Below are positions 1,729-59,568 of a stretch of DNA of 64,000 nt, piece by piece. The notes under the pieces are model-generated. The model was not told the DNA's origin. It saw only the letters and a list, made by a program, of their open reading frames with translations, and searched no databases. Origin of the DNA: Octopus vulgaris (Eukaryota); NCBI GenBank assembly GCA_951406725.2, contig OX597815.1, forward strand, positions 25,916,001 to 25,980,000. Reading direction: 5' to 3'. The position numbers and the translations under genes are program-made. Within the stretch, counting starts at the first letter, position 1; every line of letters begins with the position of its first letter.

Positions 1729-1938
1729 GTGACCGCGTGTGTACCGTTGGCGATTTTTCCCCTCCGTCTTCCCTTCTCTGGATCTTACCTTTTCCTATGT
1801 TTCTGACGAAGAATTCCGCTCGAAACGTTAAACCCTCCTTCTTCCCTTCCTTCCTGAGCGTCCAATATAGTACTATATTTGTTTCACGTCCACGTTCTCG
1901 CGTTTTCTCTTTGTGTTTTCAATGTTTGGATTAACTTT
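1729..1938 (+). mobile_element. (TA)n-flanked non-autonomous element, family A (Penelope pLTR/retrozyme-like)
   Basis: Close homolog at 44058-44265; contains a hammerhead core; ends in (TA)n. Confidence 0.8.
1799..1833 (+). ncRNA. Minimal type-I hammerhead ribozyme (stem II partly mutated)
   Basis: GTTT-CTGACGA-A-GAAT.TCC.GCTC-GAAA-CG-TT-AAAC: stem I GTTT/AAAC, palindromic stem III ACGT. Confidence 0.7.
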
Positions 1939-3310
1939 ATATATATATATATATATATATATATATATATATATATATATATCCGTGAGTGTGCGAGTGT
2001 GTTCGTGTGTGTGTGTGTGTGTGTGTTTGTGTGTGTTAAAATATGAATATATGTCTGTGCATACTGTTATATGTTTTAATACACACTTCAGAAATAATAT
2101 TTGATTTTCTCGTCTTCTAATTTTGTAATTATGGCAATTATTTTCTGATAATTGTTAATTGTTTTCTGCCATCAAAATAACCTGAAGTAAAAATTTTATA
2201 AGCAAATGTTACACTTGTCTACGCAAACAATGCTTAAGTTAGCTCTGAAGTCCAGTATCTAAAACTATCACAACGAATTTCATATATTTATTATGAAACA
2301 TACGGTGTAGATAAAATTGGACGGCAGAAACCAAAGCAAAATAATGCAAGAAAGATTTATGTGACGTTTGGCATAGTAATGGGTCTTGAGAATGTATTTT
2401 CGTTAATCCGATTACAGGGTTCTTTCAAATCCCCGATCAGAACCTACCGTAATCTCTTGTGCCATAGAACCTATCAACCATCTCTTAAGAAAATTTATAG
2501 AAAGCAGATTGACGGTATATCGGCTACACAGCCGATATACCTTCAATTCGACTGATTAATTTCTTTTTATCCTGGTGCTGTGGATTGGTTAAATTGGTAG
2601 AACTTTGGGCAAAATGTCTTGTGTTTATTTACGTTTTAGTTTCAAATAATTTCTCAGGGGGCTGCTTTGCCGTTCACGTTTGTAGAGATGGTAAAAAGCG
2701 CACTCAAGAACTAGAGTCGATATCAATATAACCCCACCAATTACACACCGCGCGCCCACACACAGACACAGACACACACGCACGCACGCACATACACACA
2801 CACACACCACAAAAATAATTTTAATAAAAATTATAAACTGAAAAATGACACCTAAAAAACAGTTAGGAACATGAGAATACAAGGTTCACAGCCAGAAATG
2901 GTTACAAGTGTTGACACCTTTGCAGTAGAGTACGGCAGTGGTCAGCGCTGAGGAAACTAGCAACATTTACCACTCCACACATATGTACTTCCCTGCATGT
3001 TTTTAGATACTTTTAATTGACATTTTGTACTGGACAAATAAAGGATTATTGTTGAATCGTTAGAGCGTAGGAAAAATATCAAAAGATATTTTTTCCAGCT
3101 CTTTTAAGTACTGCGTTCGAATCCTGCTGTGTTCACCTATTGTTTTCTCCTTTTCAGGGTCGATAAAATAAAGTACCAGTTAAGTATGTGGTCGATGCAA
3201 TCGACTAAACACTTCCCAGATTATTTTGCGCCTAAATCGGCCCCAATACATATTCTATCAGTAATTTTGCGCCTAAATTTGAAACAAATTTTATAATTGT
3301 TACATCGGTG

Positions 3311-3710
3311 AAGGCGGCGAGTTGGCAGATTCGTTAGCACGCCGGGCGAAATGCTTAGCGTTATTTCGTCTGTCGCTACGTCCTGAGTTCAAATTCCGCC
3401 GAGGTCGACTTTGCCTTTCATCCTTTCGGGGTCGATTAAATAAGTACCAGTTACGCACTGGGGTCGATATAATCGACTTAATCCGTTTGTCTGTCCTTGT
3501 TTGTCCTTTCTGTGTTTAGCCCCTTGTGGGTAGTAAAGAAATAGGTATTTCGTCTGCCGTTACGTTGTGAGTTCAAATTCCGCTGAGGTCGACTTTGCTT
3601 TTCATGCTTTCGAGGTTTACGTAATAAATACCGGTTGAGCACTGGAGTCGATATAATCGTCTAGCCCCAACTTCCCCAAATTTCCGGCCTTGTGCCTATA
3701 GTAGAAAATA
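3311..3710 (+). mobile_element. tRNA-derived SINE family A, full copy plus partial second copy
   Basis: AAGGCGGCGAGTTGGCAG head, GAGTTCAAATTCC B-box, conserved GCCTTTCATCCTTTCGGGGTCGAT..AAGTACCAG central domain; more than 10 copies in the window. Confidence 0.9.
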
Positions 3711-5044
3711 TTATTATTTTTGCAGTTGTTGCGAGAATCGTAATGCCAAAGACAACGGTGAAAGTGTAGTGGAACTGATGATGCTAGCATAGGAGTTGAT
3801 ACTGTTATCGTTGGTATTGTTGTTGTTGTTGTTGATGATGATGATGAGGATAATATAGCCACGTCATTCAAGATAGATGAAAAAATGCTTAATAGGATTT
3901 TAACGCCGAAAACTACTACATCTATAGAAAATTTTTGTTTCTTTACACGAAAAGAGTTGGAAATTGCTGCCTATATTTACCAAAATTCTAAAGATTTTCT
4001 CCAGTCATGACTAATTTCAGCCAACTGCAATACTTCATCTAACTTAGTCAATTAACTTGAAATTTTCTTTTCGCCAACAATTTGACTTGATTCCTTTCGA
4101 TTTAATACCAAACCCTTTGTAAAGTTAGATTAGTTACGCAGAATATTATCAAAGGTTATGAAAATATATGGATTGGTAATCAGTTTTACAATTTCAATGC
4201 TTATGAATCTTTTCTCTATCTCAAAAATGACTTTGAAAGCTACTTGTCTGGCCCTGTTTGTTGAACGCACTGAAGGATTTATTTGCAAAAAGAAAAAGTT
4301 TTAGCCTCGAAGTGGCACTTGTTGCACCATTTCTTTTTATTTCTTAACCAATATCCTTCGACAATATGGACTTCATCGATTCAAGCGTTTATTTGTTAAC
4401 ATTTTACAATGGACTTTTGTGCCCGAGAATTCTCATAAGATCTTCTCAAGGAATTTTCCTTAAAATAGCTTTTCTTTTCTGAAAACAATTTCCCTTAAAG
4501 CTTCATTTATTGATAATCTTTTGAGTAAAAATATATTCCACTAAGAGTTTTCTGCTTATTAAACTTTGTCGAAATCTACTTAAAACTACATATTTGACAG
4601 TATTTTGTCATTTTTTTCAATCTCACACTAAGCCACTAGATTTTAAATTAAATATTGACTACGTAATTATAATGATGGTCGATATTGCCATCGAAAGAAT
4701 TAGAGGAAGTTCTGACCACTGTATGGTAGGCTGTGTGATCCATCTGCAGGCCATATAAAAGCATGTACTTGGTCTTTAAGACCAGATGTATGCTTCTGTA
4801 TACTCGTATCTTGTTAGTTTAATACTACCAATTAACTAGTTTAGCTTAATTCTACCAAGGATTTATCAGTCTCAATATTAGCGATATCTTTATCAAATTC
4901 ACGGTGCAATTTTCTCAATGAATCATGCATAACGTACTCACATTGGGCTTAAAGACCCTAATATTTTCATTCCAATTACTGAGTATAAAATTTCTTTAAC
5001 CTCACTGGGGGCACTACGCAGAAACAAATCGGCCCCCAATACAT

Positions 5045-5368
5045 ATTCTATCAGTATCTTTTGCTGAACAGGTAAGTTGTGGCCACGGGAACAGCCAATA
5101 CTGGTTGTCAAGCGATAGGGGAGCGAACACAAAAATATACACATAAAAGCATACAAACACACACACACACACACACATATATATATATATATATATTTGT
5201 GTATACAACAGGCTTCTACAGAGTTTCTGTCAAACCATACTAACTCATAAGGTGTTAGTCGAATCGGGGCTGTAGTAGAAGAATTTGTGCAAAGTGCAGT
5301 ATTGTGAAAGTGAACCCAAAACTCCGCGGTTGAAAAGTAAGCTCTTTAGCCACACAGCTATGCCTGCA
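5045..5368 (-). mobile_element. SINE family B copy (degenerate)
   Basis: Reverse-complement match to family B head and body with internal (CA)n(TA)n. Confidence 0.7.
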
Positions 5369-57714: not shown

Positions 57715-57938
57715 TAATATTTTTATGAAGTTTTTAATAATTTCTCAGGATTTTTTCTGTAAACTGTTTTTAACATTTTCTTATTATTATCAAAGAATGT
57801 ATATATGTATTGTAACTTTTTGTGCCTAATATTTTAATGAACTTTTTAATATTTTCCCAAGATTTTTACTTGTAAATTGTTTTTAACATGTTCTTATTAT
57901 TATCAAAGAATGTATATATGTATTGTAATATTTTGTGA
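57715..57938. repeat. Diverged tandem duplication, ~113-bp period
   Basis: TTATTATTATCAAAGAATGTATATATGTATTGTAA at 57781 and 57894. Confidence 0.8.
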
Positions 57939-58089
57939 CAACCAGTACTTAACACAACAAAGCTTTTACATGTTACTTTTGACAATCTTCTTCTAAAAAA
58001 GTGAAACTGGTCAAGTGAATAAACACCTTTTAGAATTGCATTTTCAAACTTTCTTTCAGATATATTTCCACTCGTGCGGTATCTTACAA

Positions 58090-59237
58090 CTTCACTTTGT
58101 AATATGATAGATTCGAAGTTGGGTGGGGCAGAATAGGATAGTTTCATGGTGGATTTATTAAAGATAGAATAATAGTTATGTTGACGAGGGAAGTTGAAGT
58201 CCAGTATTTTAAAGAAGGATTTGGCTAAGTTCTTAACGTTAAGTGAGAAGGGGGCGTGTGTACCACAGAATGGAGCGTCCGCCACTTTTTTTGGTTGTTT
58301 AGGAGCAGTGTTATCCACATTTTTGGAGAATGAAAAAGGTAGTAAAGCCTGTTGTTGTTAGCTATTTTAGCTGTTTTAGTTTTTGACCTAGTGTTAAATG
58401 TATGCGTGCGGGGTCTAGGTTGTCTAGGTGTGAGATCTTCCGGGGTTCTATCAAAGTGTATGTGTGGTCGGTTGTGATTCTGAAGTGTATCTTTGCGATG
58501 TGGTTTGAGATATATATTGTTTAAGTCTGGTGTTATGGATGTATTTTATTTGTTGGGAGAAGCCGCTAACGGTGAGTGCTTGCTTGTAATAAGGTGAGTG
58601 GTTATTAAAAATTTCCTCAGTGGAAGAGAGGTCAGATATACGGGTCGAGATATTATTGATTGTGCTTGCAAAAGTAGATTTGTGGTGATTAGAATGAATG
58701 TATGAGTATTTAAGATATTGGTTAGATTTGTGGTAAGGGGAGTACTGGGAGGTAGATAAGTTTAGAGTTACGTCTAAAACGTTAGAAGTTTTGTGAGAAT
58801 TTTCGAATGTGATAGATAGGTTTAAGAATTTGTGTAGATCCTTTCTAGTTCTTTCCAAAGAGGATTTATTTATGCTTTTGGCAACTAGTAAGGCCTCATC
58901 TCGGTAGGGACCCCTCTTGATGCTAGGGAAATGTATTTGTACCTGATTGAGTATATATATTCCAACCAGGTCAATGACCTAGGCGGAATCAGATGATCCC
59001 ATGGTAATGTCAAATAAGTTGCTATGTTTATTGTTGTGGTGATTAGTTCAGCACCAGAGTTTGCCCTCAAAAGAAATGTGTTTTGCAGGCATTAAGGATT
59101 ATGTTAATTTCCAGTGGGGCTGATTTAGTTAGGTTCTTAGCAAGAAGAAGAGCTTGATTCAAAGGTTTAGGAGAAAAAGAATGGTAATTATTTATGTCGA
59201 ATTGTAGGAAAGTGTAAGGATTTTTTTGTTGTAGCAT
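58090..59237 (-). pseudogene. Penelope-like element reverse transcriptase remnant (Naiad/Chlamys-like)
   Basis: FLQFDINNY, FDITMGSSDSA*VIDLVGIYI, YRDEAL, NVLDVTLNL..YSPYHK..YIHSNH, PFSLNVKNLAKSFFKILDFNFP..IFNKSTMKLSYS motifs; stops and frameshifts. Confidence 0.85.
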
Positions 59238-59528
59238 TTACTTAGCTTTACTCGATACCATTTGAGTCTTCCTGACACCAATACCTTTCATACCATTGAT
59301 ATGTGTATACATACATACATTCATACATACATATACATACATACATACATACATATATATATATATATATATATATATACATACATATATATATATATAT
59401 ATATATTTACTTACAAACTCAGCAAAAGCTGTACGTACGCCGCTATATTTATATAAACGGAACAAGAACGTAACGGACGACAGTGAAAACATATGGACAG
59501 ATGGACGATACAAAGATGGACAGGAAAA

Positions 59529-59568
59529 CCAAGACGGAACTTTCGTAGCTTTCTATTCATCAGTCAAG
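59529..59568 (-). ncRNA. Degenerate hammerhead-like motif in a (TA)n-ending fragment (~59406-59740)
   Basis: Minus strand CTTGA-CTGATGA-A-TAG.AAAG.CTA-C-GAAA-GTTCCG-TC-TTGG; stems I and III weak. Confidence 0.4.

Follow-up and report, generated by a model that had tools for sequence, protein, structure and literature searches.

Minimal hammerhead motifs in (TA)n-ending repeats of Octopus vulgaris and their relation to pseudo-LTRs of Neptune-type and Hydra-clade Penelope-like elements

Minimal hammerhead ribozymes (min-HHRs) are described from the pseudo-long terminal repeats (pLTRs) of metazoan Penelope-like elements (PLEs) as motifs with an extra nucleotide, a short helix I and a palindromic helix III, in many families that differ by compensatory changes (Cervera and De la Pena, 2014; PMC4209133). 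Two PLE clades are described by Craig et al. (2021; PMC8557442). Those of the Hydra clade combine DKT, RW(K/R), a CxCX5C linker, an endonuclease with CxxC and CxH, (TA)n insertion and hammerheads, and those of the Neptune clade combine DKG, a CX2-5CxxC linker, a C-terminal GIY-YIG endonuclease with an internal Cys pair and His, microsatellite targeting and a tandem arrangement of pLTR, open reading frame (ORF) and pLTR. Non-LTR retrozymes are proposed to descend from the pLTRs of PLEs (Cervera and de la Pena, 2020, PMC7229834; Li et al., 2026, 10.64898/2026.07.22.740005), and related literature includes PMC6765202 and PMC13282606. PLE hammerheads are absent from Naiads. Here we analyze a 64-kb stretch of microsatellite-rich animal DNA from the 2.8-Gb genome of Octopus vulgaris (C2:25916001-25980000, hereafter the window), together with loci fetched elsewhere in the genome (numbered L), and compare the hammerhead-like motifs of its (TA)n-ending repeats with these systems. 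The architecture and the (TA)n targeting as such are already published (Cervera 2014; Craig 2021).

We consider it very probable that the window motifs are minimal type I hammerheads in the 3′ pLTRs of at least two PLE clades, with families A and B being Neptune-type and family D and the motif at 15950 belonging to the Hydra clade, joined by a likely non-autonomous family C, and that they are likely passengers of (TA)n insertion that are predicted to cut only as dimers. The linkage of A, B, and D to reverse transcriptase (RT) or GIY-YIG ORFs is seen directly, as are tandem and inverted copies, 3′ ends fused to (TA)n with variable 5′ ends, and copies that read through the predicted cut site. 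Judged by their sequence, the motifs are minimal type I hammerhead folds and copies of a predicted self-cutting RNA, and as in the published min-HHRs they have, in families A and B, an extra nucleotide that sits between 9 and 10.1, are mostly solo copies of truncated PLEs and include opposite-strand pairs (PMC4209133). A first-pass annotation of the window had given the motif coordinates and strands, the stem I pairs GTTT/AAAC, TCTTT/AAAGA, GACTCG/CGAGTT, and GTCT/AGAC, and the stem III palindromes ACGT, ACCGCGGT, ACAGCTGT, and, at 15950, ACAATTGT, all of which are as written. It had also described several distinct families sharing one architecture; the common hammerhead fold stands, but the families are mostly the 5′-truncated 3′ ends of autonomous PLEs.

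Matches to the fold were counted with a descriptor that allows at most one core mismatch and requires at least four pairs in stem I, at least two in stem II, GAAA and a palindromic stem III. The descriptor was shaped on the window motifs, so that a 600-kb outside sample (60 stretches of 10 kb on 28 contigs, placed by hand without a random generator) is the fairer test, and both were compared with block-wise dinucleotide shuffles (100 for the window, 10 for the sample), a control that the first-pass annotation had itself proposed. The match rate is well above the shuffles, with 5 matches in the window vs. a mean of 0.09 (maximum 2) and 24 in the sample vs. 0.9. Exact-core matches number 3 vs. 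0 and 13 vs. 0, respectively, and those with at least three stem II pairs 2 vs. 0.03 and 22 vs. 0.4; the motifs at 44127, 15950, and 59529 are missed by the descriptor. The chance that the motifs are accidental matches in AT-rich, repeat-rich DNA is therefore negligible. Accident does account for 59529 and is expected to account for about one of the 24 sample matches, but it is refuted for families A to D by the shuffles, by the genome pattern counts given below and by reversed-pattern controls, which returned 0.

About one motif per 10 kb had been estimated. The window has one per 13 kb and the sample half that density, one per 26 kb, with no significant difference (P = 0.12). Scaled to the genome, the sample corresponds to about 1.1 × 10^5 motifs with one core mismatch allowed (Poisson 0.7-1.6 × 10^5) and about 6 × 10^4 with an exact core, the true interval being wider because the sampling was not random and because tandem or inverted pairs make up some of the matches. 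The estimate of 10^5 compares with about 2,000-9,000 min-HHRs per genome in PMC4209133; the axolotl is reported to have 126,247 retrozyme-type motifs, and the giant squid 235 Rfam hammerheads (PMC6962438). The very large genome-wide number that had been predicted is borne out in this sense, but to call it a "ribozyme load" overstates it, because selection is inferred to act on the source elements, the copies decay, a solo copy has no partner for dimer formation, and core substitutions are present in the largest families. It is highly improbable that host selection maintains the dispersed copies, for example to cut host transcripts: only the high number speaks for it, but the copies decay in the ordinary way, with CpG-type changes in core and palindrome, damage is seen in three of the seven copies that the window has of real hammerhead families (1799, 44127, and 15950), and the solo copies have no partner with which to dimerize. 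A (TA)4 run lies within 350 nt downstream of 16 of the 24 sample matches, as compared with 30% of random positions, and the predicted cut sites in the window lie 87-225 nt upstream of the first (TA)n. A distance of about 50-220 nt to a 3′ end running into (TA)n had been proposed; the copy at 25271 is 670 nt away, one 445-bp unit further.

Family A is present in the window as a 5′-truncated Neptune-type 3′ end that runs into (TA)22 (1729..1938, + strand; 91% to the copy at 44060), with a minimal type I hammerhead (1799..1833, +) that has the canonical core and U at the cut site and a damaged stem II of only two remaining pairs. A second copy (44060..44265, +) contains the hammerhead 44127-44161, in which the palindrome is broken (ATGT, a change seen in 9 of 45 A copies) and the cut site has G, and a 3′ fragment at 867..963 (+) ends in a TA repeat and lacks the hammerhead. 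Genome-wide there are 3,124 first-look candidates and 6,452 matches to an exact 35-place pattern. The 20 loci viewed have variable starts and finish in a TA run, and 18 longer copies reach to differing lengths into a CA-rich untranslated region (UTR). In one copy (L207 and L197) this 3′ UTR, of about 1.7 kb, stands behind the broken end of a Neptune-type GIY-YIG endonuclease that is 54% identical to that of family B.

Family B is represented by a 3′ end running into (TA)17 (16960..17162, +) with a minimal hammerhead of A6U core, CUGUCGA (17028..17065, +). A sampled copy sits behind a GIY-YIG frame, and the B end follows the endonuclease in all seven loci fetched, which were picked from the top endonuclease matches; the window copy is 81-86% identical to the young-subfamily pLTR behind the endonuclease. 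The endonuclease protein has 17,152 first-look candidates, and the 150 that were scored are 98-100% identical. Locus L169 is a pLTR-ORF-pLTR tandem with an open frame of 1,092 residues, and this intact ORF contains DKG, YIDD, a CX2-5CxxC linker, and a GIY-YIG domain with CCHH-type residues. Two contigs have the same sequence at the junction of the tandem, with TATATA where solo copies end. The features listed for the Neptune clade by PMC8557442 are thus the same in B, the difference being the changed hammerhead core, and a Naiad origin is ruled out, the endonuclease being C-terminal. A and B are alignable beyond the ribozyme, and on this sequence evidence both are Neptune-type PLE 3′ ends.

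Several further observations concern these two families. The sequence TTCCTGAGCG is common to A and B about 20 nt 3′ of the ribozyme (window 1853-1862 and 17082-17091) and, by pairing with stem II's 3′ strand, could form a competing fold. 5′-truncated A copies are joined directly to the 3′ end of B (L024, L028) or of a further family, E (L185), with no TA between them, which suggests insertion into the TA end of an earlier element or template switching. The B copy in L172 has many scattered TA substitutions over its last 200 nt or so, which may be an artifact of consensus building or polishing beside the TA run. Directly after the window B copy lies a TA-flanked element of two long inverted arms (17197-17530; relatives in L122 and L127), in which no hammerhead was found and which is either MITE-like or a fold-back PLE end.

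Family D lies on the − strand as the 3′ end of a Hydra-clade PLE (43672..43954), and its hammerhead (43739..43786, −) has a U4C core (CCGAUGA), unpaired A and G at the base of stem II and a stem III of ACAGCTGT. An inverted piece of its optional 3′ extension marks the 5′ end of the insertion (43956..44050, +); the extension lies 3′ of D in sense in L068, L069, L071, L076, and L080. Of 25 loci, 7 have D next to a Hydra-type RT fragment; D follows the RT in sense in two of them (L148, L154) and precedes it, inverted, in five. The window itself contains a broken internal RT fragment of the Hydra-clade family that includes D (58070..59234, −; 38-61% to the intact ORFs of L166-L168), for which there are 9,967 first-look candidates genome-wide. 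The CxCx5C linker is present in the D-family loci L147 and L155, and the Hydra-type relatives have DKT with CxCx5C (L166-L168) and RWR (L168). The motif at 15950 belongs to a Hydra-associated 3′ end with a 5′ inversion (15844..16093, +) and is a half motif (15947-15964) in which GAAA, ACAATTGT, and stem I's 3′ strand are all that is present, the 5′ half having been replaced by the inversion; it aligns to a complete hammerhead region 5′ of the Hydra-type ORF in L167. By their sequence D and, through homology, 15950 are Hydra-clade PLE 3′ ends, and they agree with the published clade in its protein motifs, (TA)n insertion and hammerheads. PMC8557442 has few Hydra families outside cnidarians, with one from cephalopods (Hydra-1_Obim) in its File S1, whereas several with different hammerheads occur here (L166-L168, D, and the sample), a comparison made by motifs.

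In L167 the truncated Hydra-type ORF stands between two different hammerheads (960-1190 and 3550-4250), with ACAATTGT as stem III before it and, as read by eye, ATGGCCAT after it. At least six more hammerhead families are present in the 600-kb sample (L090, L097, L108, L117, L118, L119, L120, L135), with palindromes that include ACCGGT, ACGATCGT, ACAATTGT, ACACGTGT, and ACGTACGT, and L108 is a tandem of units of about 534 bp. Optional 3′ tails are found in D (about 170 nt; L068, L069, L071, L080) and in E (about 40 nt; window 59406-59445, L176, L186). They give each family two alternative 3′ ends, much as two start sites are reported for a Poseidon element.

Family C differs in being a non-coding tandem of two head-to-tail 445-bp units, 99.8% alike, that ends in (TA)n (24606..25495, −), followed by an inverted piece of the unit at the 5′ end of the insertion and then (TA)n (25500..25548, +). 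Each unit has a hammerhead; the one in the 3′ unit (24823..24904, −) has a 9-bp stem I, a long stem II, ACCGCGGT as stem III and an extra A before GAAA, and that of the 5′ unit lies at 25272..25349 (−). Elsewhere C forms young arrays of up to ten units, often with inverted 5′ pieces, the top full-length copies are 94-100% identical, and the 3′ ends cluster at unit positions 330, 365, and 441-446, with TATA/ATAT at the alternative ends 330, 365, and 441. C has what is expected of a retrozyme (150-450 bp, low-GC tandem, one type I hammerhead per unit, no ORF), and like retrozymes it extends from dimers to multimers. It differs from them in its long atypical stem II and the added A ahead of GAAA, and in having 5′ inversions of the PLE kind and ends in (TA)n. 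From its sequence, C is likely a non-autonomous, retrozyme-like tandem derivative. Another idea is that the motifs sit in independent short non-autonomous (SINE- or retrozyme-like) elements that converged on one design. Most copies are 200-300 bp, and C is non-coding, tandem, of retrozyme size and low in GC (38%), with no ORF in the 20 loci viewed. The extension of A, B, and D in the 5′ direction into PLE UTRs and ORFs, with variable 5′ ends, refutes independence for these three and leaves it tenable only for C and perhaps E, so that as an explanation of the motifs it is improbable. The circular fold of the C unit is modestly stable (z −2.2). A 475-nt contig spans the whole unit (four contig-level runs of guessed kind, with no ends, strand or level) and fits tandem DNA as well as a circle.

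The catalytic core was tallied in 45 copies of A, 44 of B, 36 of C, 33 of D, and 15 of E, after 14 loci were dropped as duplicates of the window or of each other; the tallied copies were mostly chosen by likeness to those of the window, and the genome-wide pattern counts are thus the fairer measure. Position numbers follow hammerhead numbering. The exact core CUGANGA...GAAA...UH is kept in 36 of 36 C units, and palindromic helix III is intact in 35 of 45 A, 38 of 44 B, 34 of 36 C, and 23 of 33 D copies. A CUGANGA box had been assigned to all motifs, which is incorrect for 17028 (CUGUCGA) and 43739 (CCGAUGA), in both cases as a family trait. The A said to follow the box is truly additional, with a G-C pair after it, only in A (AG in 44 of 45 copies, TC in 45 of 45, for the extra nucleotide and G10.1-C11.1) and B (43 and 42 of 44), not in C, D, or the homologues of 15950. 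C and D have a second unpaired base (A, or mostly G) before GAAA and, unlike the min-HHRs of PMC4209133, lack a clean G10.1-C11.1 pair beside it, and the 15950 homologues have G directly after the box, without the extra A.

In family B, U6 occurs in 7,744 exact genome matches vs. 31 with A6. Position 7 can be C, U, A, or G, but U6 stays, as do the stems. C4 is present in 81 of the first 100 listed of the 6,452 A matches (all on C1) and in 76 of the first 100 listed of 259 D matches, both counted by eye; C4 makes a CpG, so that some U4 copies may have arisen by decay. There is also an A subfamily in which U4 is combined with an A cut-site nucleotide, and the U4 form of A fits the published min-HHR consensus letter for letter (PMC4209133). 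B, D, and the C4 form of A are therefore core variants, E is not a member, and the core is unchanged in C and U4-form A. Hammerhead core variants are known (Perreault et al., 2011; PMC3088659), and the variant in PMC4209133 is U3-A8, as compared with A6U (B) and U4C (D and most A) here. We found no PLE paper on A6U or U4C (CCGAUGA, CUGUNGA) hammerheads, with Lunse et al. not checked, and the variants may be in print.

The A6U and U4C cores would likely weaken cutting. It is a real if less than even possibility, and one that refines the PLE reading, that in the families with most copies the fold has ceased to work as a nuclease or has been selected for slowness, its stems persisting as a structure for protein binding or template positioning. 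The excess of U6 in B, whose family has many intact, 98-100% identical endonuclease copies, the freedom of position 7 beside constant U6 and stems, and the C4 majority among the listed A and D matches in two clades all agree with it, as do the published rate of A6C (<0.1 per min), the lower in vitro activity of U4C, the finding that catalytic mutants do not stop insertion in vitro, and family E, which seems to have lost the fold yet has 1,337 first-look candidates. However, each case can be explained without selection by a single founder mutation in a source element that was successful, U4C is still compatible with viroid infectivity, B and D are otherwise intact in the core, C, the youngest tandem family, is exact-core throughout, and PLE protein can assist cleavage. 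More tentatively still, and with the balance of our judgment against it, prolific PLE families of two clades may have repeatedly fixed weakening changes (A6U once, U4C twice) with the stems kept, such that slow or protein-gated cutting was selected, the uncut tandem RNA being the template. If true, this would provide a natural allelic series with thousands of copies of each form for testing whether PLE hammerheads help or ride, in addition to an element-encoded TATA that primes (TA)n insertion.

Covariation had been taken as evidence of selection for the fold. Among homologues there are true compensatory changes, few in number: between A and B one stem I pair changes from G-C to C-G and loop II is changed, between C and an older relative in L107 two stem I pairs change together with the palindrome, and between L167 and L090 two stem I pairs change. 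The differences between Neptune and Hydra motifs are not covariation, since these are not alignable homologues.

For the PLE reading we propose the following steps. The endonuclease would nick (TA)n, and reverse transcription would start internally, at a point 90-225 nt 3′ of the ribozyme at which TATA in the RNA template could pair with the nicked target. It would mostly stop after a few hundred bases, and such early stops would be why nearly every stub carries a ribozyme. The template would be uncut or re-ligated RNA. Palindromic stem III may allow neighboring copies in a tandem transcript to pair and cut, giving unit-length RNA, which in family C is possibly a circle that is copied round into arrays, and the solo genomic copies would likely be inert and decaying. 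For a Poseidon PLE, reverse transcription begins internally and insertion proceeds without ribozyme cleavage, and the ribozyme is protein-assisted and, in vitro, dispensable for insertion, which catalytic mutants leave unblocked (Frangieh et al., 2024; PMC11167929). As reported in PMC4209133, min-HHR dimers cleave weakly and single motifs not at all.

A number of points weigh against this reading. The Poseidon start site is reported as non-homologous to the target (PMC11167929). Efficient cutting is made less likely in B, D, and most of A by their fixed core changes. Among predicted minimum-energy folds, 24826 alone forms the full three-stem monomer, 17028 and 44127 form stems I and II, and self-dimer folds give a clear stem III duplex only for 24826. 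Thermodynamic folding, as modeled here, is equivocal and of little use for such small motifs. The link of A to an ORF is one broken copy, that of 15950 is homology to a pLTR 5′ of a truncated ORF whose 3′ end has another hammerhead, and no ORF partner was found for C or E in the loci examined. Finally, the clade names rest on motifs and not on an RT tree, and Nematis stays a formal alternative to Neptune. Pfam and NCBIfam do not recognize the PLE ORFs, except for a weak GIY-YIG match below cut-off, and the clades were therefore read from motifs.

The window motifs have the same catalytic core class as the Rfam hammerhead families, and no Rfam hammerhead match was found at gathering score in seven loci, or among the 150 listed of 238 weak matches in the window. 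Neither hammerhead nor ribozyme is mentioned in the main text of an octopus repeat annotation from 2026. The analysis extends a known motif across a genome with an estimated 10^5 copies that Rfam models miss, and ties (TA)n-ending stubs to named PLE clades, which aids repeat annotation. The purpose of PLE hammerheads is a question in the field, and a young, intact Neptune-type family with A6U beside U4 and C4 sisters makes it directly testable.

Family E has a 3′ end with the optional tail at 59406..59740 (−) and the motif 59529-59568, which had been listed as a weak hammerhead. This assignment falls, as 14 of 15 aligned family copies lack GAAA, the one that has it being the window's own, and stem I pairs in none; by sequence, the fold seems to be lost in this family. 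A permuted type II reading of 59529 with an upstream GAAA, made by eye, was rejected because there is no adjoining stem II. Weak Rfam miRNA matches in the window were likewise discarded as microsatellites and hairpins. Among the other window features, a LINE-type reverse transcriptase fragment lies at 62257-62901 (−; Pfam RVT_1, E 6.5e-8). The frames 28947-29666 and 48169-48567 resemble LINE pieces and that at 18191-18981 a Tc1/mariner piece, none of the three with a Pfam match.

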